From Antedon mediterranea (lineage: Eukaryota > Animalia > Echinodermata), in assembly GCF_964355755.1 (NCBI RefSeq), contig NC_092672.1, positions 36,276,437 through 36,340,436 of the forward strand: 64,000 bases of DNA, in the 5' to 3' direction. The notes below the pieces were generated by a model. The model was not told the origin of the DNA. It ran no database searches and was given only the letters and a program-made list of their open reading frames with translations. This document shows positions 1 to 37,306 of the stretch, in pieces. A program made the position numbers and the translations under genes. Every line of letters begins with the position of its first letter. Position 1 is the first letter of the stretch.

Positions 1-3000
1 CATAATCAGCGATCACGAAATCTTAATGGTACATTTTGTAAGCCTGACAATTCATCACCTTCATTAAACAGTCAATTTGAAGTAAAAAACAGTGCTATTG
101 ATGATATTTATGTCTGTAAAGTATGTAATGATGTTATGTCTTTGTCTATGTTAGAGACTAAATGTTGCCATACTTTTTGTGCAAATTGTTTGTCCCAACT
201 GTTTTGTACACTAAAAGCAGATGTAATTCCTTGTCTTCAATGTTTGTCTCCTGTTTGCATTGTTGATGTGAAATCGCCATCGAAACTAAGCCAGCAATCA
301 TTGAGCTGAGATGCCAAAAGTGCTCGGACACACTTTTGTATCCAGAATGTCAAGATCATACTTGCATATCAAACTGCCAACTAAAGGTTAAAAAAATTAA
401 AAAAGCAGTAAATGAGATCAACGAATCAATCAATGAAGTGATACCTAATCAACTTGAAAAATTAGCTCATAAAGTAATTCACAAGTCTCTGAAGAAAAAC
501 AAGGAAATTACTTTAAACACAAATGGCAGGGTAAGTCAATTACAATTTTAAAATAAAAAAATACTGAAATATTAATCAAACTAAATTATAATGTTAATTG
601 AAATTTTATAAGCAAATTGTATTACTTTTAACCAGCCATTGAAAGTTACTGTTATTCCTAATGCAACAAAGTCAAGCAATGATGTGAGTCAACGAACTGT
701 AAAGCGAAGAACATCAGAGGTTCAGCGACTGAGGAAAGCAGTATCTGTAGGTGGGGAATTAAGACAGTTATCCGATGAAGTGAGTCACCTTCCTTCCAAA
801 CCTCCAAATCAAGATGTAGATGATAGCTTGGCGATGAAAGTTGACTGTGGTCTTGGTTGGCAACAAATTAGAAAGCTAAGAAGGTAAATAAAACAACTTT
901 GATTAGATAATATGATAATATAAGCATCACCAACATGTTTATTTAAATTGGCAAGTATCTCCGTTATTTAAAATGTACTGTTTTTACAAATTCTATTAGG
1001 TATTTTTTACCTGGGTTTATATCGTCAGAAAGACAAATGCAAGGTCGACAAGAAGAATTAACTCTTGATTTTATCGATGAAAAGATGATTCCCCTGGTTT
1101 TTAAATGTGATGGTGCAAATGGTAAAGATGGGTTTTTAGAGAAGATGGCTCCTGTAGTAGTAGTGAAAAATATCCATGACTTTTTATTTACACACCTGGA
1201 AAAACATGAAGAGTAAGTATTTTTTGGTAATCTAATCAGTCGCAAGTGTAACAATATTTTGTGTTGATTTATAAGGACAGTTAAACATAATATTTTGTAT
1301 ATACTTTTGTTTCTAGATTGCACAACATCAAACCAAAGGATGGGGAGATCCTGATCAAATTTGGTGGCGATAAAGGTGGCGGGTCCACAAAATTTGAGTT
1401 ACAAATTTGCAGCATTGACAAACCCAACGCCTTGCACAACATCCTTGTCGTGCTGATGTTTAATGCACCAGACTACACCACTAATTTATCTAGAACACTC
1501 CCACTCATCAGCAAACAAATCACAGATTTGAATGGACAAGAGTGGAGGTAGGATTAAATATATCTTAATATAATTTACAAAACATCATAATTACCTGAGT
1601 CATACATGAAATCTGCAATTAACATGTGTTTGTTCTATTTGTTTTTTAGAGGTTATAAACTGCGGGTCTTCTTTTTTGGAGATTATGATTTTCTAGTCCG
1701 AATATATGGGCTATATTCACCTAATGGTAAGAATAGAATTATAGATTAATTAGAAAATATGTTATGATTAATATATATTGTATGTATTGATATCACTGGA
1801 TGTATTCCTATTCCAGGAAGATACTGTTGTTTGTTTTGCACATCAACAAAAGATGACATAAACAAGGGAATTAAAAGGGAACCGAGATGTCTACAGAATA
1901 TGTCTGAAGATTATGCCAAATTTATTGACTCTGGGTCAAAAGAGGACAAAAGTAAGGATGTTTCTAGAAACATTGTACGGGCGCCAATGGTTAATGTAGA
2001 TATTGACCATGTAAGTTTTGATTTTACATTTTAAAACAACATTACATAATAAAATAATACATTTTATATAAACACTCATCATAACTAACTATAATTCTAA
2101 TAATGCAAATTAATGGTATTATTTCCTTTTCAAATAGGTATCAATACCATGTCTTCACATTTCACTTGGAGTTTTTAAAAAACTTTATGATTTGCTGGAA
2201 TGTGAAGCCCATGAGATGGACAAACAACTCTATAAGTTCAGGTATGGAAATAGAGTACATTAAAAAAAACAGTGTACCAATCAAAGATTCACTAATATAA
2301 TAGTAAATAATTTATGCATTTCAATAATGAAATTGTAACTACTAATTGTTTTTTAGACAACATAATCCATCAGCAGAGAGCAGAAACAATTTTGAGCTCT
2401 GCATTGCTCAAAGTGCCTTAAAACTAGAAGCAAGCAAAAAACAAATTGCGATACTAGAAGATGAAATAGTTACTATCGAGGACAATATGACTATTGCCCA
2501 GCTGGGACAGTCTGCCAGTGCCATTTCATCAAAGACTCAGAAAATTAAAGAACTCGTAAGTAAAGTAAAAAATCACGGACTAAGAGTGGCTAATGAAATT
2601 TACAAGATTTTTAATTATAACTAAAAATATATATAATTAAAAATATTGCATGTACTTTTAGAAAGAAACAATAGAGAAAGATCAACTAAAACATGGTATG
2701 GGGCCCATTGCATGTTCAATGGATTTGGTGCTGAAAGAAAATCGAGTAGACCGAAGAGCATACCACGGCAAGGCTTTCAATGGCAATCACGTCCATAAAT
2801 GTTGTAAGGTAAATTGCACATTTAATATCTAAACAATTTTATTGTTTAACATACTTTTATGTAATTTGATAATTTAACCTATTATTTTATTACAGATAAA
2901 CATCATTGCAAAACTTATGGATAAATTCAAAGAAACACTTGAGAGTCAGAGTATGGATATACCAATCAAACATGCACAAGCATTGACAATTCAGGCAAAG

Positions 3001-3505
3001 GGAATTGATGCCAAATTCACTCCACTTTTCCATAAATTTTCGGCAGTGGAACAAAAAATTAATCATACCCGGCCAGTTACCGACTATGAAATAAATGAAA
3101 TTGGTAAGCAGAATATTATACATTTCATTTAGATATTTCATTAAAATATGTAAATTATAAAAAACACAATATATTTTTTTTTTGATAGACAACGACATCA
3201 AGGATTTTTTTATAGAGTACAGGAAATATGGTTATAACATCTCACCTAAACTGCACATGTTGGAGGTGCATGTTGTACCAACCCTTCGAAGATGGCATGT
3301 TGGACTAGGCTTGCTCAGTGAGCAAGGTGGCGAGCAAATTCATGCAGCATTCAATCGACAGAGCCGCAACGTCCATGGCGTCAATTCAGAAGGCAAGAAA
3401 ATGAAATCCATAATGAAAAATCACATGGTGTACACAGTCCCCGAAATCCATCACAGAATAGTTCCACCTAAAAAAAGAAAACACAGTAAGTATAATGAAG
3501 AATGA
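1..3505 (+). pseudogene. Spliced RAG1-related (Chapaev-type) DDE transposase gene; 5' end lies outside the window; one frameshift near 290-309
   Basis: Exons read manually, all GT-AG and phase-consistent: <1-530, 636-883, 1000-1212, 1317-1547, 1650-1726, 1817-2010, 2138-2241, 2357-2555, 2662-2808, 2896-3103, 3189-3505. Motifs: C3HC4 RING (CKVC..CCHTFCANC..CLQC, 115-243), second zinc motif CQKC..HTC, NGRP at the exon 1/2 junction, KFGGDKGGGSTK (D at 1369), FGDYDFL (D at 1681), GRYCCLFC, PCLHISLG, AYHGKAFNGNHVHK, PKLHMLEVH, GLGLLSEQGGEQIH (E at 3332). Frame 1 stops at 307-309 while the zinc motif continues in frame 3. Confidence 0.88.
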
Positions 3506-3989
3506 AACTCTAATTAGACATCTAAATATGTTTTTGAATTATTTTTATTCTCATTTTCTATTTCTATTATTCTGGTATATGATTAATTACAGAAGTATTT
3601 GCAACAATTATTTAGTCAACAATGTTATTAATAATGTATTTATTGTAGGTACTGAAGAATGAAGATTCAATTGACATGGACTTGCAGACAGTAACACAAT
3701 TTTTGTGTTGCAAGTATCAACAGAGAGTTTTTTGTAAATGAAGAAGCAGGGAAAATTTTCATTTCAACATTTTTTTTGCAATATTATTGATAATCAAACT
3801 GATTTTTTAGTCGAGAAACATAGTTTTGTAGTTGCATTTTTTACTACATAATTTAGCAATAAAGTTGTTTTGTGAAGCTTTTTGCTATGCTACACTGGTG
3901 AAATTATTCCCTGAGAACTGCGTCAAAATTTGTCATTGTGATTAAAGAATGAGAATTTATTGTATGTAAAAAATTTACAAATAAAATAT

Positions 3990-4330
3990 TCTATACAAGG
4001 TTTATTGATGATTTAAAAAAAATGTATGTTGCAAAAAATAAATGCAGGTTTTTAATTTATGATATTGATAATGAAATTAAAAACCATTTTAAAAATTTAA
4101 ATAACACTAAACACTCATTTATTTAATGACTGGTTATAAATTAAAGAATTATCAAGGTTTATTGATGATTTTTGAAGAATTTATAAATGATGCAATAAGA
4201 AATGCATATTTTTATTATGATTTGAATTGTATTTAATTAAATTTAATAAGTAGCCATGTTAAAATGTAAATAACACCAATTATTTATTGACTGGTTGAAT
4301 AATATAATTGATTTTCGAAGAATTTATTGT
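3990..4330. repeat. Degenerate ~155-bp AT-rich tandem duplication downstream of the transposase
   Basis: CAAGGTTTATTGATGATTT occurs at ~3997 and ~4153, and AAATAACAC at ~4098 and ~4268. Confidence 0.5.
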
Positions 4331-5189
4331 TATATATAATGGAGTAAAGAAAACTTCATGGTTATAAGTCTAGCCCTACCATTAACAATGCCTAAAGCTG
4401 GACTTATTTTATATATTATTAATTAGCCTAGGCCTACATATACTATGTATTGCCTACCTTTACTATTTAAATGTTTTACATACTAATAATATTAATATTA
4501 TTATTAGGCTTAGGCCTACAAGACAACCTAGGCTAGTACTACTAGTTGTTGTAGTAGGGCCTACTAGTACTACTACTAGGCCTAGTACTAGCTTGGTCTA
4601 TTTAGGCCTATATTATTATTCTATTTTATTAATATTATTATTATGCTGTTCAATAATGTTGATTTTTCTTCTACTAGAATAGGCCTAATTAACAAATAAA
4701 AAAAAAATTAGGCCTACAGTAATAATATAGTGCTTTCCTTATTTATTTACATACACACGTGTAGCTAGGCCTAGATAATAGTGCAAGATCTGAAAGCGAA
4801 ACGTCGTGAAATGATCAATTCTCGGGCGCGCATACGCGCTAGGCCCACTACACGGTATACACTCTTCCCAGGAGCGCCGTGAAGTTGGTTACTTATTCCT
4901 TATTCGACATTCGTCGATGGAAGTTGGTTCCTTATTCGACGTTCGACATTCGCTAGGCTAGGCCAAAATTTCGAAAATGATAATTTCCCAGCGGTAAATA
5001 TGCCGTGCGCCACCAACCAATCTCCTGCTGTTACTTATTCCCTATTCGACATTCATTAGTGAAGTTGGTTCCTTATTCGACGTTCGCTAGGCCGCGGCCG
5101 ACCGGCTGGCCCAAATTCGTACCAAAGTAGACCTAGTCTAGATGTACCTATTTTATCACAGATTTACATTTTTTAGTTCCGATATTACG

Positions 5190-8100
5190 ACCATACCAAC
5201 GCCTCGGGCCAGGTTCACAATAGTATAGATTGACGTAGTATGGTCCTGGAATTCCAGAAATGTGCCACTTGCCCGGACCCAGATCGGGCAAGTACGGATT
5301 TTAAAGCAATTTAAAATGCGTATTTTTAGCATTAATTTAGTAAACACCACTTTTAAAGTGGCCATATGACCACACACCGACGCCTCGCGTCGGGTACACA
5401 ATAGTATAGATTGACGTAGTATGGTCCTGGCATTCCAGAAATGTGCCACTTGCCCCGGCCCAGTGCGGGCAAGTATGGATTTTAAAGCAATTTCAAATGC
5501 GTATTTTTAGTGTTATTTTACTAAGTATTAATAGCACCACTTTTAAAGTGGCAATATGACCACACCCCGACGCCTCGGGCCGGGTTCACAATAGTATGGA
5601 TTGACATAGAAAGGTCCAGACTTTCTAGAAATGTGCCACTTGCCCCGGCCCAGTGCGGGCAAGTACGTGTTTTAAAGCAATTTAAAATGCGTATTTTTAG
5701 TGTTATTTTACTAAGTATTAATAGCACCACTTTTAAAGTGGCCATCTGACCACACCCCGACGCCTCGGGCCGGGTACACAATAATATAGATTGACGTAGT
5801 ATGGTCCTGGCATTCCAGAAATGTGCCACTTGCCCCGGCCCAGTGCGGGCAAGTACGTGTTTAAAAGCAATTTTAAATGCGTATTTTTAGCATTAATTTA
5901 CTAAGAATTAATAGCACCACTTTTAAAGTGGCCATATGACCACACCCCAACGCCTCGGGCCGGGAACACAATAGTATAGATTGACGTAGAATGGTCCTGG
6001 CATTCCAGAAATGTGCCACTTGCCCCGGCCCAGTGCGGGCAAGTACGTATTTTAAAGCAATTTTAAATGCGTATTTTTAGCATTAATTTAGTAAACACCA
6101 CTTTTAAAGTGGCCATATGACCACACCCCGACGCCTCGGGCCGGGTACACAATAGTATAGATTGACTTAGTATGGTCCTGGCTTTCCAGAAATGTGCCAC
6201 TTGCCCCGGCCCAGTACGGGCAAGTACGACGTGTTTAAAAGCAATTTCAAATGCGTATTTTTAGCATTAATTTACTAAGAATTAATAGCACCACATTTAA
6301 AGTGGCCATATGACCACACCCCGACGCCTCGGGCCGGGAACACAATAGTATAGATTAACGTAGTATGGTCCTGGCATTCCAGAAATATGCCACTTGCCCC
6401 GGCCCAGTGCGGGCAAGTACGGATTTTAAATCAATTTAAAATGCGTATTTTTAGCATTAATTTAGTAAACACCACTTTTAAAGTGGCCATATGACCACAC
6501 CCCGACGCCTCGGGCCGGGTACACAATAGTATAGATTGACGTAGTATGGTCCTGGCTTTCCAGAAATGTGCCACTTGCCCCGGCCCAGTGCGGGCAAGTA
6601 CGGATTTTAAAGCAATTTAAAATGCGTGTTTTTAGTGTTATTTTACTAAGTATTAATAGCACCACTTTTAAAGTGGCAATATGACCACACCCCGACGCCT
6701 CGGGCCGGATTCACAATAGTATGGATTGACGTAGAATGGTCCGGACATTCCAGAAATGTGCCACTTGCCCCGGCCCAATGCGGGCAAGTACGTGTTTTAA
6801 AGCAATTTAAAATGCGTATTTTTAGTGTTTTATTTTACTAAGTATTAATAGCACCACTTTTAAAGTGGCCATATCACCACACCCCGACGCCTCGGGCCGG
6901 GTACACAATAATATAGATTGACGTAGTATGGTCCTGGCATTCCAGAAATGTGCCACTTGCCCCGGCCCAGTGCGGGCAAGTACGGGTTTTAAAGCAATTT
7001 AAAATGCGTATTTTTAGTGTTATTTTACTAAGTATTAATAGCACCACTTTTAAAGTGGCAATATGACCACACCCCGACGTCTCGGGCCGGGTACACAATA
7101 GTATAGATTGACGTAGTATGGTCCTGGCTTTCCAGAAATGTGCCACTTGCCCCGGCCCAGTGCGGGCGAGTACGGATTTTAAAGCAATTTAAAATGCGTA
7201 TTTTTAGCATTAATTTAGTAAACACCACTTTTAAAGTGGCCATATGACCACACCCCGACGCCTCGGACCGGGTACACAATAGTATAGATTGACGTAGTAT
7301 GGTCCTGGCATTCCAGAAATGTGCTACTTGCCCCGGCCCAGTGTGGGCAAGTACGGGTTTTAAAGCAATTTAAAATGCCTATTTTTAGCAAAAATTTACT
7401 AAGAATTAATAGCACCACTTTTAAAGTGGCCATATGACCACACCCCGACGCCTCGGGTCGGGTTCACAATAGTATAGATTGATGTAGAATAGTCCTGGAA
7501 TTCCAGAAATGTGCCACTTGCCCCGGCCCAGTGCGGGCAAGTAAGTGTTTAAAAGCAATTTCAAATGCGTAATTTTAGCATTAATTTACTAAGAATTAAT
7601 AGCACCACATTTAAAGTGGACATATGACCACACCCCGACGCCTCGGGTCGGGTTCACAATAGTATAGATTGATGTAGAATAGTCCTGGCATTCCATAAAT
7701 GTGCCACTTGCCCCGGCCCAGTGCGGGCAAGTAAGTGTTTAAAAGCAATTTCAAATGCGTATTTTTAGCATTAATTTACTAAGAATTAATAGCACCACAT
7801 TTAAAGTGGCCATATGACCACACCCCGACGCCTCGGGCCGGGAACACAATAGTATAGATTGACGTAGTATGGTCCTGGCATTCCAGAAATATGCCACTTG
7901 CCCCGGCCCAGTGCGAGCAAGTACGGATTTTAAAGCAATTTAAAATGCGTATTTTTAGCATTAATTTAGTAAACACCACTTTTAAAGTGGCCATATGACC
8001 ACACCACCCCGACGCCTCGGGCCGGGTACACAATAGTATAGATTGACGTAGTATGGTCCTGGCTTTCCAGAAATGTGCCACTTGCCCCGGCCCAGTGCGG

Positions 8101-11100
8101 GCAAGTATGGATTTTAAAGCAATTTAAAATGCGTATTTTTAGTGTTATTTTACTAAGTATTAATAGCACCACTTTTAAAGTGGCAATATGACCACACCCC
8201 GACGCCTCGGGCCGGGTTCACAATAGTATGGATTGACGTAGAAAGATCCAGACTTTCTAGAAATGTGCCACTTGCCCCGGCCCAGTGCGGGCAAGTACGT
8301 GTTTTAAAGCAATTTAAAATGCGTATTTTTAGTGTTATTTTACTAAGTATTAATAACACCACTTTTAAAGTGGCCATATGACCACACCCCGACGCCTCGG
8401 GCCGGGTACACAATAATATAGATTGACGTAGTATGGTCCTGGCATTCCAGAAATGTGCCACTTGCCCCGGCCCAACGCGGGCAAGTACGTGTTTAAAAGC
8501 AATTTTAAATGCGTATTTTTAGCATTAATTTACTAAGAATTAATAGCACCACTTTTAAAGTGGCCATATGACCACACCCCAACGCCTCGGGCCGGGAACA
8601 CAATAGTATAGATTGACGTAGAATGGTCCTGGCATTCCAGAAATGTGCCACTTGCCCCGGCCCAGTGCGGGCAAGTACGGATTTTAAAGCAATTTTAAAT
8701 GCGTATTTTTAGCATTAATTTAGTAAACACCACTTTCAAAGTGGCCATATGACCACACCCCGACGCCTTGGGCCGGGTACACAATAGTATAGATTGACTT
8801 AGTATGGTCCTGGCTTTCCAGAAATGTGCCACTTGCCCCGGCCCAGTGCGGGCAAGTACGACGTGTTTAAAAGCAATTTCAAATGCGTATTTTTAGCATT
8901 AATTTACTAAGAATTAATAGCACCACTTTTAAAGTGGCCATATGACCACACCCCAACGCCTCGGGCCGGGAACACAATAGTATAGATTGACGTAGAATGG
9001 TCCTGGCATTCCAGAAATGTGCCACTTGCCCCGGCCCAGTGCGGGCAAGTACGGATTTTAAAGCAATTTAAAATGCGTATTTTTAGCATTAATTTAGTAA
9101 ACACCACTTTTAAAGTGGCCATATGACCACACCCCGACGCCTCGGGCCGGGTACACAATAGTATAGATTGACTTAGTATTGTGCTGGCTTTCCAGAAATG
9201 TGCCACTTGCCCCGGCCCAGTGCGGGCAAGTACGTGTTTAAAAGCAATTTCAAATGCGTATTTTTAGCATTAATTTACTAAGAATTACCGTAATAGCACC
9301 ACATTTAAAGTGGCCATATGACCACACCCCGACGCCTCGGGCCGGGAACACAATAGTATAGATTAACGTAGTATGGTCCTGGCATTCCAGAAATATGCTA
9401 CTTGCCCCGGCCCAGTGCGGGCAAGTACGGATTTTAAAGCAATTTAAAATGCGTATTTTTAGCATTAATTTAGTAAACACCACTTTTAAAGTGGCCATAT
9501 GACCACACCCCGACGCCTCGGGCCGGGTACACAATAGTATAGATTGACGTAGTATGGTCCTGGCTTTCCAGAAATGTGCCACTTGCCCCGGCCCAGTGCG
9601 GGCAAGTACGGATTTTAAAGCAATTTAAAATGCGTGTTTTTAGTGTTATTTTACTAAGAATTATATAATAGCACCACTTTTAAAGTGGCCATATGACCAC
9701 ACCCCGACGCCTCGGGCCGGGTACACAATAATATAGATTGACGTAGTATGGTCCTGGCATTCCAGAAATGTGCCACTTGCCCCGGCCCAGTGCGGGTAAG
9801 TACGGGTTTTAAAGCAATTTAAAATGCGTATTTTTAGTGTTATTTTACTAAGTATTAATAGCACCACTTTTAAAGTGGCAATATGACCACACCCCGACGT
9901 CTCGGGCCGGGTACACAATAGTATAGATTGACGTAGTATGGTCCTGGCTTTCCAGAAATGTGCCACTTGCCCCGGCCCAGTGCGGGCGAGTACGGATTTT
10001 AAAGCAATTTAAAATGCGTATTTTTGGCATTAATTTAGTAAACACCACTTTTAAAGTGACCATATGACCACACCCCGACGCATCGGGCCGGGTACACAAT
10101 AGTATAGATTGACGTAGTATGGTCCTGGCATTCCAGAAATGTGCCACCTGCCCCGGCCCAGTGCGTGCAAGATGTACGTGTTTTAAAGCAATTTCAAATG
10201 CGTATTTTTAGCAAAAATTTACTAAGAATTAATAGCACCACTTTTAAAGTGGCCATATGACCACACCCCGACGCCTCGGGTCGGGTTCACAATAGTATAG
10301 ATTGATGTAGAATGGTCCTGGCATTCCATAAATGTGCCACTTGCCCCGGCCCAGTGCGGGCAAGTAAGTGTTTAAAAGCAATTTCAAATGCGTATTTTTA
10401 GCATTAATTTACTAAGAATTAATAGCACCACATTTAAAGTGGCCATATGACCACACCCCGACGCCTCGGGCCGGGAACACAATAGTATAGATTGACGTAG
10501 TATGGTCCTGGCATTCCAGAAATATGCTACTGCCCCGGCCGAGTGCGGGCAAGTACGGATTTTAAAGCAATTTAAAATGCGTATTTTTAGCATTAATTTA
10601 GTAAACACCACTTTTAAAGTGGCCATATGACCACACCCCGACGCCTCAGGCCGGGTACACAATAGTATAGATTGACGTAGTATGGTCCTGACTTTCCAGA
10701 AATGTGCCACTTGCCCCGGCCCAGTGCGGGCAAGTACGTGTTTAAAAGCAATTTCAAATGCGTATTTTTAGCATTAATTTACTAAGAATTAATAGCACCA
10801 CTTTTAAAGTGGCCATATGACCACACCCCAACGCCTCGGGCCGGGAACGCAATAGTATAGATTGACGTAGAATGGTCCTGGCATTCCAGAAATATGCCAC
10901 TTGCCCCGGCCCAGTGCGGGCAAGAACGGATTTTAAAGCAATTTAAAATGCGTATTTTTAGCATTAATTTAGTAAACACCACTTTTAAAGTGGCCATATG
11001 ACCACACCCCGACGCCTCGGGCCGGGTACACAATAGTATAGATTGACGTAGTATGGTCCTGGCTTTCCAGAAATGTGCCACTTGCCCCGGCCCAGTGCGG

Positions 11101-13597
11101 GCAAGTACGGATTTTAAAGCAATTTTAAATGCGTATTTTTAGTGTTATTTTACTAAGTATTAATAGCACCACTTTTAAAGTGGCAATATGACCACACCCC
11201 GACGCCTCGGGCCGGGTTCACAATAGTATGGATTGACGTAGAAAGGTCCAGACTTTCTAGAAATGTGCCACTTGCCCCGGCCCAGTGCGGACAAGTACGT
11301 GTTTTAAAGCAATTTCAAATGCGTATTTTTAGCAATAATTTACTAAGAATTAATAGCACCACTTTTAAGGTGGCCATATGACCACACCCCGACGCCTCGG
11401 GCCGGGTACACAATAATATAGATTGACGTAGTATGGTCCTGGCATTCCATAAATGTGCCACTTGCCCCGGCCCAGTGCGGGCAAGTACAGGTTTTAAAGC
11501 AATTTAAAATGCGTATTTTTAGTGTTATTTTCTAAGTATTAAAAGCACCACTTTTAAAGTGGCAATATGACCACACCCCGACGCCTCGGGCCGGGTACAC
11601 AATAGTATAGATTGACGTAGTATGGTCCTGGCTTTCCAGAAATGTGCCACTTGCCCCGGCCCAGTGCGGGCAAGTACGGATTTTAAAGCAATTTAAAATG
11701 CGTATTTTTAGCATTAATTTAGTAAACACCACTTTTAAAGTGGCCATTATGACCACACCCCGACGCCTCGGGTCGGGTTCACAATAGTATAGATTGATGT
11801 AGAATGGTCCTGGCATTCCATAAATGTGCCACTTGCCCCGGCCCAGTGCGGGCAAGTACGTGTTTAAAAGCAATTTCAAATGTGTATTTTTAGCATTAAT
11901 TTACTAAGAATTAATAGCACCACATTTAAAGTGGCCATATGACCACACCCCGACGCCTCGGGTCGGGTTCACAATAGTATAGATTGATGTAGAATGGTCC
12001 TGGCATTCCATAAATGTGCCACTTGCCCCGGTCCAGTGCGGGCAAGTACGTGTTTAAAAGCAATTTCAAATGCGTATTTTTAGCATTAATTTACTAAGAA
12101 TTAATAGCACCACATTTAAAGTGGCCATAATATGACCACACCCCGGCCCCTCGGGCCGGGTACACAATAGTATTGATTGACGTAGTATGGTCCTGGCATT
12201 CCAGAAATATACCACTTGCCCCGGCCCAGTGCGGGCAAGTACGGATTTTAAAGCAATTTAAAATGCGTATTTTTAGCATTAATTTAGTAAACACCACTTT
12301 TAAAGTGGCCATATGACCACACCCCGACGCCTCGGACCGGGTACACAATAGTATAGATTGACGTAGTATGTTCCTGGCATTCCAGAAATGTGCTACTTGC
12401 CCCGGCCCAGTGTGGGCAAGTACGGGTTTTAAAGCAATTTAAAATGCGTTTTTTTAGCAAAAATTTACTAAGAATTAATAGCACCACTTTTAAAGTGGCC
12501 ATATGACCACACCCTGACGCCTCGGGTCGGGTTCACAATAGTATATATTGATGTAGAATAGTCCTGGCATTCCATAAATGTGCCACTTGCCCCGGCCCAG
12601 TGCGGGCAAGTAAGTGTTTAAAAGCAATTTCAAATGCGTATTTTTAGCATTAATTTACTAAGAATTAATAGCACCACATTTAAAGTGGCCATATGACCAC
12701 ACCCCGACGCCTCGGGCCGGGAACACAATAGTATAGATTGACGTAGTATGGTCCTGGCATTCCAGAAATATGCCACTTGCCCCGGCCCAGTGCGAGCAAC
12801 TACGGATTTTAAAGCAATTTAAAATGCGTATTTTTAGCATTAATTTAGTAAACACCACTTTTAAAGTGGCCATATGACCACACCCCGACGCCTCGGGCCG
12901 GGTACACAATAGTATAGATTGACGTAGTATGGTCCTGACATTCCAGAAATGTGCCACCTGCCCCGGCCCAGTGCGTGCAAGTACGTGTTTTAAAGCAATT
13001 TCAAATGCGTATTTTTAGCAAAAATTTACTAAGAATTAATAGCACCACTTTTAAAGTGGCCATATGACCACACCCCGACGCCTCGGGTCGGGTTCCCAAT
13101 AGTATAGATTGATGTAGAATAGTCCTGGCATTCCATAAATGTGCCACTTGCCCCGGCCCAGTGCGGGCAAGTAAGTGTTTAAAAGCAATTTCAAATGCGT
13201 ATTTTTAGCATTAATTTACTAAGAATTAATAGCACCACATTTAAAGTGGCCATATGACCACACTTCGACGCCTCGGGCCGGGAACACAATAGTATAGATT
13301 GACGTAGTATGGTCCTGGCATTCCAGAAATATGCCACTTGCCCCGGCCCAGTGCGAGCAAGTACGGATTTTAAAGCAATTGAAAATGCGTATTTTTAGCA
13401 TTAATTTAGTAAACACCACTTTTAAAGTGGCCATATGACCACACCCCGACGCCTCGGGCCGGGTACACAATAGTATAGATTGACGTAGTATGGTCCTGGC
13501 TTTCCAGAAATGTGCCACTTGCCCCGGCCCAGTGCGGGCAAGTATGGATTTTAAAGCAATTTAAAATGCGTATTTTTAGTGTTATTTTACTAAGTAT
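5190..13597 (-). repeat. Left-arm satellite array, ~45 copies of a 181/190-bp monomer
   Basis: The unit ...GTGCCACTTGCCCCGGCCCAGTGCGGGCAAGTAC..TTTTAAAGCAATT..AGCACCACTTTTAAAGTGGCCATATGACCACACCCCGACGCCTCGGGCCGGG.. recurs throughout. A 9-bp indel gives two monomer lengths. Confidence 0.97.
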
Positions 13598-14336
13598 GTG
13601 AAAGTGTTTATAATAAGTATTGCACGCGTTGGACCGGGGCAAGTGGAACATTTTCTGGATCATACTACATCAATCTAACCCGGCCCGAGGTGTGGTCATA
13701 TTGCCACTTAAAATTGGTGCTATTAATACTTAGTCAAAAACACTAAAAATACGCATTTTAAATTGCTATAAAACACATACTTGCCCGCACCGGGCCGGAC
13801 AAGTGACACATTTCTGAAATGCCAGGACCTTACTACGTCAATCTATACTATTGTGAACCCGGCCCGAGGCGTCGGGTGTGGTCATATTGCCAATTTAAAT
13901 GTGGTGCTGTTAATTCTTAGTAAATTAATGCTAAAAATACGCATTTGAAATTGCTTTAAAATCCGTACTTGCCCGCACTGGGCCGGGGCAAGTGGCACAT
14001 TTCTGGAAAGCCAGGACCATACTACGTCAATCTATACTATTGTGTTCCCGGCCAGAGGCGTCGGGTGTGATCATATGGCCACTTTAAAAGTGGTGCTATT
14101 ATAATACTTAGTAAAATAACACTAAAAAGACGGATTTTAAATTGCTTTAAAACCCGTACTTGCCCGCACTGGGCCGGGGCAACTGGCACATTTCTGGAAT
14201 GCCAGGACCATACTACGTCAATCTATACTATTGTGTACCCGGCCCGAGGCGTCGAAGTGTGGTCATATGGCCACTTTAAATGTGGTGCTATTAATTCTTA
14301 GTAAATTAATGCTAAAAATACGCATTTGAAATTGCT

Positions 14337-16836
14337 GGAGCTATTAGGACAAAAAAGTCAAAATATTTTAATATGCTGTTTATACCGCCCTCCAAATGCA
14401 AATTATGAATATTTTAACTTAATTATTGATTTACTTGAAAAAGTTAGTATGGAAAACACTGAAATTGTACTACTCGGCGATTTTAATATTGATTATGTCT
14501 TAAATGAGAACCTCTCGAAAAATCCTATCAATATGATCGAAAACATGTTTGTTATGACCCAGTTGATTCATGATAAAACAAGAGTTACGTCACACTCATC
14601 AAGTTGTATTGATTTGATACTAACAACAATTCCAGATCAGCACTATTTAAGTGGTGTTGCTAAAATAGCTTTAAGCGACCATTTTATGGTTTACAGCTGT
14701 TTAAAATTTAAGGAAAAAGAAGCTAAACATAAAACAATATATTATAGAGATTATAAGAACTTTGATGAAGGGGCATTCTTGCATGATATTTCCCATTCTC
14801 AGAAATTACAAAATATTCACAATATTAATAACGTTGACAATGCATGGGGTACGTTTAAAAATTGCTTTCTAAATTTAAGTAATAAACATGTGCCTATAAA
14901 AAATTCAAGAATAAAAAATAGATTCTCTCCCTGGATAACTCCTGAAATTATAAAGTTAATGTACAAAAGAGATTATACTAAAAGCAAAGTAAATGTTAAT
15001 AATCCAGGATTAAAAACTGAGTATAGAAGACTTAGAAATCTGGTTAACACTAACATTAAGAAAGCAAAGTATAACTATTTTAATAATGTAAATATAAAAT
15101 ATAAAAATAATCCAAAAAAAATGTGGAACGAGCTAAATAAACTAACTGGTAAAACGAAATCTAACATTAGTAAAACTATTGATTGCGAACATTTTAATGA
15201 ATACTTTACCAACATAGGAGTTAAGATGGCGCAGTCATTTGACGATACGCTGCCAAGTTGGAATAATCCACCTAGTGAATATTCCTTTAATTTTATAAAT
15301 GTTGATGTAAATACCATTAAAAGGAAGCTTTATAATTTGCCAGAAAAAAATTTAGATGTTCTTGATTTTGATAGTAAATTGTTAAGGTTAGCAGCTCCGT
15401 ACATTGCTTATCCATTGTGTCATATTGTGAATCTCTCTCTCATGTCTGGTCTTGTCCCAGCTGATTGGAAAGTAGCAAGGACAACTCCTATATATAAAGG
15501 AAAGGGTAGTAAAGACAGTATGAGCAACTACAGACCAATATCTGTCGTTGCTCATATCGCAAAGATTATAGAGAGAGTGGTTCAGGAACAAATCATTTCT
15601 TTTCTTAGTTTGTTTGATTTGATTAACATTGATCAATTTGCCTTTTTGAAAAACCATTCTACTGTAACATGCTTGCACAGAGTAGTTGATGATTGGTTAG
15701 AAAGTTTTAATGACTCAGAGGTCGTCGGCGCTTGTTTCTTAGATATATCCAAGTGCTTTGACACGATAGATCACTCAATTTTGTTATTTAAGCTTTACAA
15801 ATATGGTTTCCATAAAAATGTTGTTTACTGGTTTAGTAATTACTTAAAAAACAGAAAACAGTTTGTATACTGTAACAATAACAAATCTACACTTAAAGAA
15901 ATCAATATTGGTGTTCCACAAGGAAGTGTCTTGGGACCCATCTTGTTTCTCATTTTCATAAATGATATTTCGCAGTCTATAGTAAATGGAACTTGCAGCG
16001 TTTTTGCTGATGATGTTGTGGTTTACACCTCAGGTGATACTGCTAAGATAGTAAATGATTCATTACAAATAATTATTGATAACATTGGTAAATGGTATGA
16101 TGACAACCACCTCTCTATAAATACTGAAAAAACAAAGGTTATGTTACTAAGAAACAATCATACAGCTGACAGTAATGATTTAAATATACAAATTGGAACC
16201 AGTAAATTAGAACAAGTTGATAGTATAAGGTATCTGGGAGTCGTAATCGATGAAATGTTAACTTGGAAACAAAATACTCAATGTATTAGTAAAAATATTG
16301 GATATAAAATAACAATGCTAGGTAAAATGGCTAGTAGTTTAAGTAAACCGTTACTTGAAACTCTATATATAAGTACAATTCAGCCTTGTAGTGATTATGC
16401 TATAACAGTCTGGGGAAATACGACAGAGTTAAACAAAAATATTTTAAAGCGACATCAAAAAAGAGCTGCTCGAATTGTAACTAACAACTTCGATTATATT
16501 AATGTAAGGGGTGACAACATCATCCAGAACTTATCGTGGCAAACTCTTGAAGAGAAACGAGATTTCTCCCTAGCATGTCTAATGTATAAATGTGTTTACG
16601 GCCTTGCACCAATTAGATTAGTAAATGAAATTGAATTGATTCGCGATATTCACACCCACTTAACACGTGGAGTAGAAAATTTGAATGTAACAATACCTAA
16701 ATACACCCTTAGTAAAATGAATTCGTCCTTTAAAGTTGCAGGCGCAAAAATATGGAACAATTTACCAATTAATATTAAATCGGCACCAACAATTACGTCC
16801 TTTAAGGCTAGATACAAATCTCATTTCTTTTCATAA
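14337..16836 (+). CDS. LINE ORF2 (C-terminal APE endonuclease + reverse transcriptase), uninterrupted, lacking its N-terminus
   Basis: Motifs YRPP, GDFNID, IDLI, SDH, NYRPIS, DISKCFDTIDH, GVPQGSVLGPILF, FADD, YLGV. The nominal TTG start at 14326 is satellite-derived. Confidence 0.92.
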
Positions 16837-16985
16837 AAAACTGACATGTATTATATTTAATTAAGTTTCTCTTTTGTATATTTTGATTAAGACAGGACCA
16901 CAATGTAAAACAGATACACTGTTATCTGATTGTTTTATCCTGTATAAATATATTATTTATTATTATTATTATTATTATTATTTTT
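14337..16985 (+). mobile_element. 5'-truncated non-LTR retrotransposon (L2/Crack/CR1 group) inserted in the satellite
   Basis: The satellite breaks at ...GAAATTGCT|GGAG and resumes after a (TAT)n tail as ...TTTTAAATTGCT. AAATTGCT on both sides is a possible TSD. Confidence 0.93.
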
Positions 16986-19900
16986 TAAATTGCTTTAAAA
17001 CCCGTACTTGCCCACACTGGGCCGGGGCAAGTAGCACATTTCGGGAAAGTCAGGACCATACTACGTCAATCTATACTATTGTGTACCCGGCCCGAGGCGT
17101 CGGGGTGTGGTCATATGGCCACTTTAAAAGTGGTGCTATTAATTCTTAGTAAATTTTTGCTAAAAATACGCATTTGAAATTGCTTTAAAACACGTACATC
17201 TTGCACGCACTGGGCCGGGGCAGGTGGCACATTTCTGGAATGCCAGGACCATACTACGTCAATCTATACTATTGTGTACCCGGCCCGATGCGTCGGGGTG
17301 TGGTCATATGGTCACTTTAAAAGTGGTGTTTACTAAATTAATGCCAAAAATACGCATTTTAAATTGCTTTAAAATCCGTACTCGCCCGCACTGGGCCGGG
17401 GCAAGTGGCACATTTCTGGAAAGCCAGGACCATACTACGTCAATCTATACTATTGTGTACCCGGCCCGAGACGTCGGGGTGTGGTCATATTGCCACTTTA
17501 AAAGTGGTGCTATTAATACTTAGTAAAATAACACTAAAAATACGCATTTTAAATTGCTTTAAAACCCGTACTTACCCGCACTGGGCCGGGGCAAGTGGCA
17601 CATTTCTGGAATGCCAGGACCATACTACGTCAATCTATATTATTGTGTACCCGGCCCGAGTCGTCGGGGTGTGGTCATATGGCCACTTTAAAAGTGGTGC
17701 TATTATATAATTCTTAGTAAAATAACACTAAAAACACGCATTTTAAATTGCTTTAAAATCCATACTTGCCCGCACTGGGCCGGGGCAAGTGGCACATTTC
17801 TGGAAAGCCAGGACCATACTACGTCAATCTATACTATTGTGTACCCGGCCCGAGGCGTCGGGGTGTGGTCATATGGCCACTTTAAAAGTGGTGTTTACTA
17901 AATTAATGCTAAAAATACGCATTTTAAATTGCTTTAAAATCCGTACTTGCCCGCACTGGGCCGGGGCAAGTAGCATATTTCTGGAATGCCAGGACCATAC
18001 TACGTTAATCTATACTATTGTGTTCCCAGCCCGAAGCGTCGGGGTGTGGTCATATGGCCACTTTAAATGTGGTGCTATTACGGTAATTCTTAGTAAATTA
18101 ATGCTAAAAATACGCATTTGAAATTGCTTTTAAACACGTACTTGCCCGCACTGGGCCGGGGCAAGTGGCACATTTCTGGAAAGCCAGGACCATACTAAGT
18201 CAATCTATACTATTGTGTACCCGGCCCGAGGCGTCGGGGTGTGGTCATATGGCCACTTTAAAAGTGGTGTTTACTAAATTATTGCTAAAAATACGCATTT
18301 TAAATTGCTTTAAAATCCGTACTTGCCCGCACTGGGCCGGGGCAAGTGGCACATTTCTGGAATGCCAGGACCATTCTACGTCAATCTATACTATTGTGTT
18401 CCCGGCCCGAGGCGTTGGGGTGTGGTCATATTGCCACTTTAAAAGTGGTGCTATTAATACTTAGTAAAATAACACTAAAAATACGCATTTTAAATTGCTT
18501 TAAAATCCGTACTTGCCCGCACTGGGCCGGGGCAAGTGGCACATTTCTGGAATGCCAGGACCATACTACGTCAATCTATATTATTGTGTACCCGGCCCGA
18601 GGCGTCGGGGTGTGGTCATATGGCCACTTTAAAAGTGGTGCTATTAATTCTTAGTAAATTATTGCTAAAAATACGCATTTGAAATTGCTTTAAAATCCAT
18701 ACTTGCCCGCACTGGGCCGGGGCAAGTGGCACATTTCTGGAATGCCAGGACCATACTACGTCAATCTATACTATTGTGTACCCGACGCGAGGCGTCGGTG
18801 TGTGGTCATATGGCCACTTTAAAAGTGGTGTTTACTAAATTAATGCTAAAAATACGCATTTTAAATTGCTTTAAAATCCGTAGTTGCTCGCACTGGGCCG
18901 GGGCAAGTGGCATATTTCTGGAATGCCAGGACCATACTACGTCAATCTATACTATTGTGTTCCCGGCCCGAGGCGTCGGGGTGTGGTCATATGGCCACTT
19001 TAAATGTGGTGCTATTAATTCTTAGTAAATTAATGCTAAAAATACGCATTTGAAATTGCTTTTAAACACTTACTTGCCCGCACTGGGCCGGGGCAAGTGG
19101 CACATTTATGGAATGCCAGGACTATTCTACATCAATATATACTATTGTGAACCCGACCCGAGGCGTCAGGGTGTGGTCATATGGCCACTTTAAAAGTGGT
19201 GCTATTAATTCTTAGTAAATTTTTGCTAAAAATACGCATTTTAAATTGCTTTAAAACCCGTACTTGCCCACACTGGGCCGGGGCAAGTAGCAAATTTCTG
19301 GAATGCCAGGACCATACTACGTCAATCTATACTATTGTGTACCCGGCCCGAGGCGTCGGGGTGTGGTCATATGGCCACTTTAAAAGTGGTGCTATTAATT
19401 CTTAGTAAATTATTGCTAAAAATACGCATTTGAAATTGCTTTAAAATCCATACTTGCCCGCACTGGGCCGGGGCAAGTGGCACATTTCTGGAATGCCAGG
19501 ACCATACTACGTCAATCTATACTATTGTGTACCCCCGACGCGAGGCGTCGGTGTGTGGTCATATGGCCACTTTAAAAGTGGTGTTTACTAAATTAATGCT
19601 AAAAATACGCATTTTAACATTGCTTTAAAATCCGTAGTTGCTCGCACTGGGCCGGGGCAAGTGGCATATTTCTGGAATGCCAGGACCATACTACGTCAAT
19701 CTATACTATTGTGATCCCGGCCCGAGGCGTCGGGGTGTGGTCATATGGCCACTTTAAATGTGGTGCTATTAATTCTTAGTAAATTAATGCTAAAAATACG
19801 CATTTGAAATTGCTTTTAAACACTTACTTGCCCGCACTGGGCCGGGGCAAGTGGCACATTTATGGAATGCCAGGACTATTCTACATCAATATATACTATT

Positions 19901-22739
19901 GTGAACCCGACCCGATGCGTCAGGGTGTGGTCATATGGCCACTTTAAAAGTGGTGCTATTAATTCTTAGTAAATTTTTGCTAAAAATACGCATTTTAAAT
20001 TGCTTTAAAACCCGTACTTGCCCACACTGGGCCGGGGCAAGTAGCAAATTTCTGGAATGCCAGGACCATACTACGTCAATATATACTATTGTGTACCCGG
20101 TCCGAGGCGTCGGGGTGTGGTCATATGGCCACTTTAAAAGTTGTGTTTACTAAATTAATGCTAAAAATACGCATTTTATATTGCTTTAAAATCCGTACTT
20201 GCCCGCACTGGGCCGGGGCAAGTAGCATATTTCTGGAATGCCAGGACCATACTACGTTAATCTATACTATTGTGTTCCCGGCCCGAGGCGTCGGGGTGTG
20301 GTCATATGGCCACTTTAAATGTGGTGCTATTACGGTAATTCTTAGTAAATTAATGCTAAAAATACGCATTTGAAATTGCTTTTAAACACGTACTTGCCCG
20401 CACTGGGCCGGGGCAAGTGGCACATTTCTGGAAAGCCAGGACCATACTAAGTCAATCTATACTATTGTGTACCCGGCCCGAGGCGTCGGGGTGTGGTCAT
20501 ATGGCCACTTTAAAAGTCGTGTTTACTAAATTAATGCTAAAAATACGCATTTTAAATTGCTTTAAAATCCGTACTTGCCCGCACTGGGCCGGGACAAGTG
20601 GCACATTTCTGGAATGCCAGGACCATTCTACGTCAATCTATACTATTGTGTTCCCGGCCCGAGGCGTTGGGGTGTGGTCATATGGCCACTTTAAAAGTGG
20701 TGCTATTAATTCTTAGTAAATTAATGCTAAAAATACGCATTTGAAATTGCTTTTAAACACGTACTTGCCCGCACTGGGCCGGGGCAAGTGGCACATTTCT
20801 GAAAAGTCAGGACCATACTACGTCAATCTATACTATTGTGTACCCGGCCCGAGGCGTCGGGGTGTGGTCATATGGCCACTTTAAAAGTGGTGTTTACTAA
20901 ATTAATGCTAAAAATACGCATTTTAAATTGCTTTAAAATCCGTACTTGCCCGCACTGGGCCGGGGCAAGTGGCATATTTCTGGAATGCCAGGACCATACT
21001 ACGTCAATCTATACTATTGTGTTCCCGGCCCGAGGCTTCGGGGTGTGGTCATATGGCCACTTTAAATGTGGTGCTATTAATTCTTAGTAAATTAATGCTA
21101 AAAATACGCATTTGAAATTGCTTTTAAACACTTACTTGCCCGCACTGGGCCGGGGCAAGTGGCACATTTATGGAATGCCAGGACCATTCTACATCAATCT
21201 ATACTATTGTGTACCCGGCCCGATGCGTCGGGGTGTGGTCATATGGTCACTTTAAAAGTGGTGTTTACTAAATCAATGCCAAAAATATGCATTTTAAATT
21301 GCTTTAAAATCCGTACTCGCCCGCACTGGGCCGGGGCAAGTGGCACATTTCTGGAAAGCCAGGACCATACTACGTCAATCTATACTATTGTGTACCCGGC
21401 CCCAGACGTCGGGGTGTGGTCATATTGCCACTTTAAAAGTGGTGCTATTAATACTTAGTAAAATAACACTAAAAATACGCATTTTAAATTGCTTTAAAAT
21501 CCGTACTTGCCCGCACTGGGCCGGGGCAAGTGGCACATTTCTGGAATGCCAGGACCATACTACGTCAATCTATATTATTGTGTACCCGGCCCGAGGCGTC
21601 GGGGTGTGGTCATATGGCCACTTTAAAAGTGGTGCTATTAATTCTTAGTAAATTATTGCTAAAAATACGCATTTGAAATTGCTTTAAAATCCATACTTGC
21701 CCGCACTGGGCCGGGGCAAGTGGCACATTTCTGGAATGCCAGGACCATACTACGTCAATCTATACTATTGTGTACCCGACGCGAGGCGTCGGTGTGTGGT
21801 CATATGGTCACTTTAAAAGTGGTGTTTACTAAATTAATGCTAAAAATACGCATTTTAAATTGCTTTAAAATCCGTTCTTGCCCGCACTGGGCCGGGGCAA
21901 GTGGCATATTTCTGGAATTCCAGGACCATACTACGTCAATCTATACTATTGTGAACCTGGCCCGAGGCGTTGGTATGATCGTAATATCGGAACTAAAAAA
22001 TGTAAATCTGTGATAAAATAGGTACATCTAGACTAGGTCTACTTTGGTACGAATTTGGGCCAGCCGGTCGGCCGCGGCCTAGCGAACGTCGAATAAGGAA
22101 CCAACTTCACGAATGAATGTCGAATAGGGAATAAGTAACAGCAGGAGATTGGTTGGTGGCGCACGGCATATTTACCGCTGGGAAATTATCATTTTCGAAA
22201 TTTTGGCCTAGCTAGCCTAGCGAATGTCGAACGTCGAATAAGGAACCAACTTCCATTGACGAATGTCGAATAAGGAATAAGTAACCAACTTCACGGCGCT
22301 CTTCCCAGGGGCGAAGGGTGTACAAACGGCATCGTAGAAAAAAAACTAACCATAACAAAAAATTTTTACTTTTCATACACGTTATTTAATAATTTCTCAT
22401 TATATTAATCTAAATTATGTTTTAATCACTGGTGGAAAACAATGTATCCTTCATTACCCAAAAATCATGCACATTTTCATGTAAAAACATAAAAATTAAA
22501 GGACATACCTTGATAACGACCTTCTCCAACAATGTGACAGCGTGCAACCTTGAATACGGGTTCTACAAGTTTTTTTACGTCACCAACTGTTTTATTCTCA
22601 TGAATATTCAGCGATATCGTGAATTAACACAAATCTATTGGTCGACAAAGTTCATTAAATATTCACATGTGTTGTCTTGTTTACTCAGAGGTTTGCATGA
22701 GAGCGCGCCCTCTATAGTTTTTTCGTTTAGCGATATAGG

Positions 22740-22767
22740 ACTTTTTGTCAATAGTGAAGACACCGTG
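22740..22767 (-). other. 12-RSS-like terminal sequence: heptamer CACGGTG, 12-bp spacer TCTTCACTATTG, nonamer ACAAAAAGT
   Basis: Reverse complement of actttttgtcaatagtgaagacaccgtg. It matches CACAGTG at 6/7 and ACAAAAACC at 7/9 positions, with exactly 12-bp spacing. Confidence 0.65.
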
Positions 22768-23036
22768 AGAAATAGTCGACGCAAGATGGAGACTATTGGG
22801 TCACATACTTAGACAAGACTCAGGTACACCAGCCAACACAGCAATAAGCTATTATTTCAGCAACACTACCAATATAAAATTTCGAGGAAGACCAAGAACC
22901 ACCCTACCAATAACTCTCCAACGACCTACCTACCCTTTATAAACAAAACACAAACCTCAAGTATCCCGGACAATTGAAAACTGGAAGATACTGGTAAAAG
23001 AGATTTACGGAGCAGCAGAGGCAGTAATCATCATCT

Positions 23037-23108
23037 GACATCATCATGTCCATATATGGGCACATCACTTTTTTTTTTCACATAGTTTGATAGTGTGGAC
23101 AGAGCTTT
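23037..23108. mobile_element. Truncated copy of a ~145-bp MITE family (TIR AAGCTCTGTCTACACTATCAAACT)
   Basis: Ends in AGTTTGATAGTGTGGACAGAGCTTT. The core CCATATATGGGCACATCAC is shared with copies at 40948, 42585 and 59140. Confidence 0.7.
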
Positions 23109-23129
23109 ACATACAATAATATAATATAT

Positions 23130-30800: not shown

Positions 30801-31335
30801 TCACAATCTTTGCACGATTTTCTTTTTGTCCTTGCAATTGCATGTTACGTCATGTCTTTAGAGTGTTTAATTGGTGGATAGTAGTAATAGTAGAGATGAC
30901 CAACCAGTCATAAATATTGATTACAAGCAGGTTCGTAATTTTTAATAAATTATTAACTTTACTTTAATTGTCTAGTTATTTGGACATAGGCCTAATAAAA
31001 GTATGACACGCTTTAAAAAAAAAAGTGGTTTTTTTTAACCTAAATCGGGTAGACGAACCAGGTGTTGGTTTTCCAATTTGGACGCAACGCAAGGGCGTAA
31101 GCGCGCCGCAAGTAATTTGACCAATCACGACGCGATGAATCATCCGAACTTTCGCCTGTGATTGGTCGTGAGGTAATTTACCGATTGATCGTAATCAAAA
31201 CGGTACTGGGTTTGGTCTACTAGCGTTCCTGCTCCCAGCAAGTTCATCCATTCATAGAAAAAAATAGATATAAAGAAGAAAAGCAAGAGACTATGGAGCG
31301 GCTATTCCCTATACTGTTCCAAATACCGTGAATAT

Positions 31336-31975
31336 TTGTGGTTAGAGGTTTCAGATGGTAATAACTTTATTATTGTAAGTGTTATTTATAGAAAGCCAAA
31401 CACTAGTATACATGAATTTCACAACGGGTTAATAAATGTTCTTAATTCTATAAAAATAGATAAACATCAATGTATTCTGCTAGGAGACTTTAATATTGAT
31501 CTGTCCAAATCGGACGATGATAAGTCGATAGATGAATTTTCTACAGCCTTAACTTGTATTAATTTAAATCAAATTATAACAGTTCCTACAAGGATTACGA
31601 AATCGTTATTATCCTTTCACTTATTTAGTTTTTTCAACATATCACCCCTGTTCTCCGTCGTCTCCATTGGCTCCATGTTGAAAAAAGCGTATTGTTTTCA
31701 AAGTTCTTTTATTTGTTTTCCAATCCATTCATCATTTTTGTCCCCAGCGTATATTTCAGAGTTAATCAAGTTTCGCTCGGCGACCTGTACTCGTTCCCTC
31801 AGGTCAACGTCTGACTATCCACGGTGTAGATTGAAGTCATGTGGGGATCGATCTTTCATGGTCCCTGCTCCAAAATTGTGAACTCTTTGCCTTTGGTGAT
31901 TCGTGAGTCTCCCTCCGTTTCGATCTTCAAAGCTCACTTGAAGACGTAGACTCACTTGTTTCGTTCTGTGTGAAT
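31336..31975 (+). mobile_element. LINE remnants: APE endonuclease fragment joined directly to an L2-type ORF2 3' end
   Basis: YRKP..GDFNIDL..PTRIT runs to ~31600 and is followed by a frameshifted LHWL..SPAYISELI..RSLRS..GDRSF..APKLW-like C-terminus. Confidence 0.75.
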
Positions 31976-37066: not shown

Positions 37067-37306
37067 ATCGTTTCAAATTAATTAATACATTTTCAGTATT
37101 TCACCGGGCAGTTTAGAATTAATGTTCTTTGCATATATTTATATATATATAAACAAATCAGGCAAAGAACATTAATTCTAAACCGCCCGGTTATCTATAT
37201 ATAACACAGGCAAAGAACATTAATTCTATTTATTTAATGGCAATAAAAACGACTAGGCCTACTAATTTGTTTTATTTTCAGAGTCATTATATTTACTCCT
37301 CAAACT

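Follow-up and report, generated by a model that had tools for sequence, protein, structure and literature searches.

A disrupted Chapaev transposon in Antedon mediterranea with a right end resembling a 12-spaced recombination signal sequence

We analysed a 64,000-nucleotide stretch of the genome of the echinoderm Antedon mediterranea (contig NC_092672.1, positions 36,276,437 to 36,340,436 of the forward strand; hereafter the window), the first 22,767 positions of which hold a DNA transposon with a RAG1-like gene and a terminus reminiscent of the recombination signal sequences (RSSs) of V(D)J recombination. Our preferred reading, to which we give a probability of about 0.7, is that this is a disrupted single-gene Chapaev element with its right end at position 22767, and that its transposase, with the fold of RAG1, likely reads a terminal CACRG block together with a 9-bp motif further inward. 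An original prediction for this stretch had proposed a RAG1-related transposon; by sequence the enzyme is a Chapaev transposase, far from RAG1-like (RAG1L) and Transib enzymes.

The right end was tested by aligning public contigs from seven sequencing runs to this region. Contigs from five runs (X4, X5, X6, X7 and X9) match through exactly 22767 and then depart, which is where homology among copies had been expected to stop; those from X1 and X11 end earlier, at 22723 and 22750, and are uninformative on this boundary. The window continues after 22767 with AGAAA, samples S2 and S3 with TAATG and S5 with TGGTG. These three samples belong to a single study, and another sample, S1, may be where the window itself comes from. 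A contig of the flanking repeat from X11 starts matching at 22768. Position 22767 is the true right end of the transposon. Truncation of the window copy at this point by the flanking repeat was rejected, given three different flanks after the same base; these flanks suggest separate insertions and recent movement, so that the Chapaev family of the window may have been mobile until recently. Over the 3' terminal segment (22310..22767, plus strand), contigs from other samples differ from the window by one to three letters and stop at 22767. At 22724 every run covering the position has T where the window has C, which creates a second A-tract, AACAAAAAA (22719-22727, minus strand), 22 bp, or two helical turns, inward of the first. 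The host repeat of the element (22768-23010) has a summed contig depth in the tens of thousands, and that of a short neighbouring repeat (23036-23110) reaches millions.

Read inward on the minus strand, the terminus consists of the heptamer CACGGTG (22767-22761), a 12-bp spacer (22760-22749) and the nonamer-like ACAAAAAGT (22748-22740), just as the original prediction described it. The heptamer matches that of the RSS at six of seven positions and the nonamer at seven of nine, with a spacer of exactly 12 bp; a nonamer at 23 bp on the same end was rejected, having 7 mismatches. When spacers of 12 or 23 were scanned, this was the sole site in the window with CAC and at most one heptamer and two nonamer mismatches. 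In simulated sequence, 0.27 such sites are expected per 46.6 kb of non-repeat window, and at least one appeared in 36 of 150 runs. The motif alone is therefore only mildly unusual, and its weight comes from its position at a proven end, not from its letters alone.

The transposase gene (1..3505, plus strand, as are all its features given here) starts upstream of the window. The left end of the element, and with it one side of any target duplication of this copy, likewise falls outside the window, and a Chapa domain would be encoded upstream of position 1. The spliced gene foreseen from the sequence is present with every motif named for it: eleven exons in a model built from the sequence (1-530, 636-883, 1000-1212, 1317-1547, 1650-1726, 1817-2010, 2138-2241, 2357-2555, 2662-2808, 2896-3103 and 3189-3505) are separated by ten predicted introns of 85-127 bp, all GT-AG. 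The spliced frame stays open between 267 and the stop codon but for a single break near 289-306; from the reading frames, this break lies approximately there, between a C3HC4 RING-like zinc finger (115..245) and the next zinc motif. The finger matches RING families at E 9e-4 to 4e-3, under their curated cut-offs, and two relatives (P0122 and P0144) clear a RING cut-off. The catalytic and zinc-binding positions are almost invariant among the relatives covering them. The first catalytic Asp (GGD, 1369..1371) is kept in 80/80 and the second (GDY, 1681..1683), 70 residues further on, in 79/81; both cysteines of CxxC (1828..1839) occur in 81/81, the histidines of HxxxxH (3254..3271) in 68/69 and 68/68, and both glutamates of EQGGE (3320..3334) in 67/67. 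The second Glu of EQGGE aligns, at an E-value of 1.6, with the RAG1 residue that we take to be its catalytic Glu. Because of the frame break and a 17-kb insertion described below, the window copy is likely inactive.

That this gene belongs with the terminus at 22767, as had been proposed, is borne out by two observations. A 60-bp contig from X9 fuses 26 letters identical to 3440-3465, in the last exon, with 22507, and looks like an internally deleted copy that ties the gene to the right end, its 26-letter side being below our 31-letter bridging standard; relatives have the same layout. The distance from stop codon to right end, put at 1.8 kb, is 1,825 bp once a foldback insertion is taken out. 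This interval has no room for RAG2: it is 72% A+T, and its longest plus-strand and minus-strand frames have 114 and 69 codons. In all nine complete relatives only 446-848 bp lie between the protein match and the right end, again no space for RAG2, so the expectation that the element lacks a RAG2 partner held.

A search with the last exon returned 817 clusters at E ≤0.001, and identity between the spliced protein and 21 long relatives is 25-32%; the relatives that carry a species name come from a lancelet, molluscs and Hydra. Exon 4 matches DUF1280 (E 1.2e-13), which corresponds to Chapaev transposases (PMC3985635). All 12 long relatives examined for domains have DUF1280, 5/12 an N-terminal RAG1_imp_bd (Chapa-like) domain and 3/12 a RING family, and Chapa plus RING is the layout reported for two Chapaev subgroups, whose cores are only distantly related to other Transibs (PMC4411706). 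Published hallmarks of Chapaev further include a 3-4 bp target duplication and CAC..GTG ends (PMC4079192). Since the element shares DUF1280 and CAC ends, its relatives make 4-bp duplications and there is no room for RAG2, we conclude on these sequence traits that it is a single-gene Chapaev and neither a Transib nor a RAG1L, the comparison with Chapaev being to published hallmarks. In a quick tree without outgroup, confined to unnamed DUF1280 relatives, the protein of the window falls inside the set, with long branches to all loci. Profiles built from 20 and from 95 relatives and compared with solved structures did not match RAG1, BbeRAG1L or HzTransib (E ≤1 and ≤0.5), and the last exon on its own reaches RAG1 at E 1.6.

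Similarity to RAG1 emerges at the level of predicted structure. For P0160, the best-scoring full-length relative (30% identity), we used a predicted model with a mean predicted local distance difference test score (pLDDT) of 85; a Foldseek search with it returned RAG1 first (E 2.7e-15), followed by BbeRAG1L and HzTransib, with Z scores of 24.9, 23.2 and 22.8 (HzTransib, 6pqx) at 14-16% identity. The best alignment to RAG1 pairs model residues 362-1018 with RAG1 390-1007 (525 aligned, root-mean-square deviation (rmsd) 11.1) and includes RAG1 390-459; the core alone gives Z 24.8 over 460 residues at rmsd 3.7. With the limits of the nonamer-binding region in RAG1 taken from PMC1131882, P0160 is predicted to have a RAG1-like core and a region positioned as the nonamer-binding domain is in RAG1. 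In the window the region so placed starts with TNGR|P, which straddles intron 1 (519..638) and has the family consensus TGGQP, its G being kept in 53/56 and its P in 47/56 relatives. In an alignment to P0160, exon 2 (636-883) leaves the window protein short of some 14 residues that relatives have in this nonamer-binding-like region, which may be a trait of the family or a lesion.

The ends of relatives were collected in a metagenome scan, aimed at a more distant clade, in which 169 of 280 pattern hits were confirmed; none was confirmed among 36 and 27 pattern hits on viral contigs. The best 80 loci, from which the ends were taken, comprise 12 multi-copy families and 23 single loci. Copy boundaries in these families fall on CACRG, the start also found at the heptamer of the window. 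One rule applied over the 80 loci yielded 92 candidate end pairs, of which 20 are flanked by a perfect 4-bp duplication, seven by one of 2 bp, two by one of 3 bp and none by one of 5 or 6 bp; the 4-bp duplications comprise 14 different tetramers. The two ends of a relative share an inverted repeat of about 13 bp and then a second motif, at an offset. When 29 loci were re-examined for ends, only L012 gave a convincing pair. Several further candidates are noted in passing. A possible 3' end at L003:3950-3995 starts with the exact RSS heptamer, CACAGTGTCTT, and has an AAAAAGT tract 3 bp deeper than that of the window, and L004 has a candidate long-type 5' end; both are unconfirmed and uncounted. 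The 5' end at L074:285-330 has GCAAAACC at positions 19-26, an RSS-nonamer-like variant near the short register, and at L024:10643-10881 the 3' end is followed after 238 bp by a 5'-type end of the same family in the same direction, possibly a short adjacent or nested copy.

The second motif lies at two preferred distances from the end. An unbiased scan of all offsets and windows in the nine families defined by duplications is best at offset 11 from position 19, with 40 of 81 matches, a value reached in none of 300 shuffles (maximum 39). A motif sampler run without positional prior on 29 chosen ends, four of them selected by pattern alone, returned GRCAYTTAG, starting at 18-22 in 11 ends, at 28-30 in 17 and at 15 in one. 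By the sampler, short and long ends differ by 10-11 bp in 8 of 11 two-ended families; with a window fixed after the data were seen, offsets 10-11 score 62/81 against 32-43 at nine other offset pairs. Expressed as RSS spacers, the registers are 11-13 bp on 8 short ends and 22-23 bp on 10 long ends, one of the latter, L060 3', having been put at 29 by hand where the sampler had picked 19. The motif occupies these two registers in three separate branches, and polarity is reversed in L011 and L012, where the long end is at 5'.

In the window, the family motif fits best at position 19, on GACAAAAAG, so that the nonamer-like element stands in the register of GRCAYTTAG on short ends. It matches the RSS nonamer at 7/9 positions, as against 2-6/9 in aligned relatives, and none of 18 relatives' ends exceeds 6/9; the expectation that the nonamer-like letters would be kept across relatives therefore failed. 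Given this difference, what is common to the family is the spacing together with the RCA..A scaffold, not the AAA: the register and four letters (R-C-A and A7) form the family scaffold in the ends compared, whereas the central AAA is particular to the family of the window and is likely drift. The exact RSS look of this end, as far as the alignment goes, is partly luck, the position and not the letters being conserved.

On the reading we prefer, the transposase would recognise each end in two parts, through the CACRG block at the terminus and through a 9-bp motif that lies further in by one or two helical turns. By analogy with RAG and Transib, a dimer of the enzyme would cut at the CAC ends with chemistry of the type known from both, the hinged region resembling the nonamer-binding domain would bind the distal motif, and in asymmetric families a pairing of one short and one long end would be favoured, as it is with RAG.

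Several points weigh against this reading. The fold model is of P0160, not of the window's own protein, and all the loci that supplied ends are only about 26-50% identical to that protein over matched stretches, the metagenome scan having found no close relative with both ends. Against the family motif the site in the window reaches a score of only 1.3 bits, so its homology to that motif rests on register and 6/9 letters. The 10-11 offset reaches p<0.01 in 7 of 11 families and misses it in 4 with a window fixed post hoc, and when each family is left free to choose its offset, 10-11 is best at p<0.05 in only 3 of 11. A single assembly prefix and a single clade account for eight of the 11 families, which are therefore not independent. 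L011 and L025 are without target duplication; L012 was seen in one copy only, and a lone 4-bp duplication defines its ends. Finally, the only candidate for a partner end in the window's own family has a 12-bp spacing, which is not asymmetric.

This candidate is a second contig, seen in X5 and X7, that matches 22739-22772 without gaps and with 4 differences in 34 letters, between unrelated sequence on either side. Its inner letters share with the right end the 14-mer CCCTCTATAGTTTT (22708..22721, plus strand), in the opposite orientation to the terminus. Its inner tract agrees with the long 3' ends of relatives at 7/8 positions in five of nine ends and at 5/8 in the other four, but at only 0-4 of 8 in nine other relatives' ends. 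From these similarities it is probably the left end of the window's Chapaev family. It is 12-spaced like the right end, and the family may therefore have two short ends, 12/12; were this so, the left end of the element would be expected to consist of a 29-bp inverted repeat followed by ATACCCCC. We rejected the candidate as a 23-spaced end, because its loose letters do not continue a heptamer; a genuinely 23-spaced left end would probably give too short a match to appear in the contig alignment. A 5-bp duplication would fit the candidate poorly if the copy is the one with the TAATG flank. Measured to the palindromic core CTATAG, the distance is 39-44 bp at the candidate end and 51-56 bp at the right end. 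The two differ by 12 bp, and an inner asymmetry may remain even with a symmetric outer motif. The suggestion that heptamer/12/nonamer ends bear on the origin of the 12/23 rule survives in another form: the spacing extends across the family and the sequence does not, and the only candidate partner end is 12-spaced, not 23-spaced.

What, then, of other explanations? The boldest would make the element a RAG1L- or Transib-grade transposon without RAG2, bearing a true RSS heptamer and nonamer and a 23-spaced left end, and standing near the ancestor of RSSs. The 6/7 and 7/9 matches at exactly 12 bp speak for it, as do the resemblance of NGRP to the GGRP of RAG1, the rank of RAG1 as best fold match, and a short 3' end like those of L011 and L012, in which the 5' end is the long one. 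Against these stand the failure of the 20- and 95-sequence profiles to match RAG1, BbeRAG1L or HzTransib, the 11-18% identity of the fold match, the Chapaev traits (DUF1280 and 4-bp duplications), the lack of any relative's end above 6/9 to the RSS nonamer in 18, and the 12-spaced candidate partner. On the sequence comparisons this account is largely refuted as to family membership, and we regard it as very improbable. A more modest account takes the end for a standard Chapaev terminus whose inverted repeat is 29 bp long and whose likeness to an RSS is due to chance, and the motif of the relatives for a host-factor site or promoter element without a role in pairing. It draws on the 0.27 sites expected by simulation, on CACRG being a trait of the superfamily, on the weak motif score of the window's end and the asymmetry not seen in its family, and on the 3 of 11 families in which the 10-11 offset is missing. 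Yet the same two registers recur in three distant branches and in both polarities, a promoter element is not expected at both ends one turn apart, and the protein is predicted to keep a region aligned with the nonamer-binding domain of RAG1; we therefore consider this account unlikely.

The remaining question is one of history. Chapaev would be a RAG2-less outgroup of Transib and RAG, and it is possible, though we hold this only tentatively, that its code of heptamer, 12- or 23-bp spacer and nonamer equivalent, with a reader resembling the nonamer-binding domain, was inherited from their common ancestor; the sequences suggest that the long/short design of ends underlying the 12/23 rule arose before RAG and Transib. 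A rival view keeps the distal motif as a transposase site and has the one-turn asymmetry evolve independently in Chapaev, RAG and some Transibs, with a hinged dimeric DNA-binding domain that reaches sites only at whole-turn steps proposed as the cause. This convergence differs from two-part recognition by a RAG1-fold enzyme only on history and is compatible with most of it. Polarity flips between branches and the family of the window seems symmetric, so that the trait appears labile and convergence has to be taken seriously; in Transib, both ends are of the long type in most families (PMC1131882), and end architecture has been described as labile (10.64898/2026.08.26.747230). Common descent is favoured in turn by the absolute registers, which match those of the RSS (motif C at 21 and 31-32 from the end) and not just in their difference, by the RCA and A7 held in common with the RSS nonamer, and by proteins that are homologous over the core and the nonamer-binding region. 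We judge separate origins to be on the unlikely side, with a good deal still to be said for them.

Among known systems, the element is closest to the Chapaev groups other than Chapaev3 (CMC/CMCT clade), with which it shares the DUF1280 core, DDE, CxxC, LH plus HxxxxH and a RING-like finger (PMC4411706, PMC4079192, PMC3985635, PMC12730594), as well as CAC..GTG ends, the left one as a candidate only, and a single gene, with relatives that have a Chapa-like N terminus and 4-bp duplications (PMC4411706, PMC4079192). It differs in having bipartite ends in RSS register and, among relatives, a one-turn long/short asymmetry, both absent from the Chapaev descriptions compared, and in that the motif of the window's family contains an RSS-like A-tract and both ends of this family may be short. 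Transibs likewise are without RAG2, have a CAC heptamer and a distal motif and, in Transib5 and Transib2_AG, 12/23-like ends (PMC1131882), and the P0160 model predicts the same fold (Z 22.8 to HzTransib 6pqx). They make 5-bp duplications, are without Chapa or RING and have an A-rich nonamer consensus (PMC1131882), whereas the window protein is RING-like and no profile match to HzTransib was obtained. With RAG1, RAG-like (RAGL) elements and ProtoRAG the likeness extends to the layout of RING and core, to the predicted fold including the nonamer-binding region (Z 24.9), and to the heptamer-spacer-distal motif design of ends, which in PflRAGL-A differ by 10 bp (PMC10629977, PMC7204232). RAGL elements have RAG2L in tail-to-tail orientation and 5-bp duplications; here identity is about 16%, RAG2L is lacking and relatives make 4-bp duplications.

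RAG2-less ends of the heptamer/nonamer type with 12/23 spacing are not new: heptamer/23/nonamer ends and some 12/23 pairs were already published for Transibs (PMC1131882). According to a 2021 review, 12/23 asymmetry outside V(D)J was known only in some Transib families (PMC8355894), and a 2023 paper reported the 10-bp asymmetry in PflRAGL-A and proposed that ends were unequal from the first RAGL onward (PMC10629977). We found no publication describing spaced motifs in Chapaev ends, although the original Chapaev reports, figures and most supplements could hold one. The same two registers in Chapaev would bear on the origin of the asymmetry by pushing the design back a step or by showing repeated evolution. 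If the code was inherited, the 12/23 architecture would predate Transib, RAG1L and the capture of RAG2, one protein could enforce it, and the window's end would show that drift can bring a Chapaev motif close to the canonical RSS nonamer. Young multi-copy single-gene systems, short/long in both polarities and perhaps in one case symmetric, would allow a RAG1-fold enzyme to be tested for a 12/23-type rule without RAG2.

The insertion that disrupts the 3' part of the element is a 17.4-kb foldback (4873..22300) flanked by a 9-bp duplication, CTTCCCAGG, at 4864-4872 and 22301-22309. Each arm consists of a unique end of about 330 bp and dozens of tandem units of 181-195 bp (about 190 bp). No transposase was seen inside the foldback, only a truncated long interspersed nuclear element (LINE): this lies at its centre (14335..16985, ends approximate, plus strand), is 5'-truncated and has an open frame of 843 codons, an RVT_1 match (E 2e-36) and a TTA tail. 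Elsewhere in the window, a single-exon frame of 739 codons at 37247-39466 (plus strand) is hydrophobic and probably encodes a multi-pass membrane protein; it has no Pfam match at E 0.1. Inspection of translations by eye picked out LINE-like fragments at 27449-29347 (minus strand), 31258-31881 (plus) and 56147-56641 (plus), and near-identical minus-strand translations repeat between about 51000 and 55000, pointing to a tandem array.

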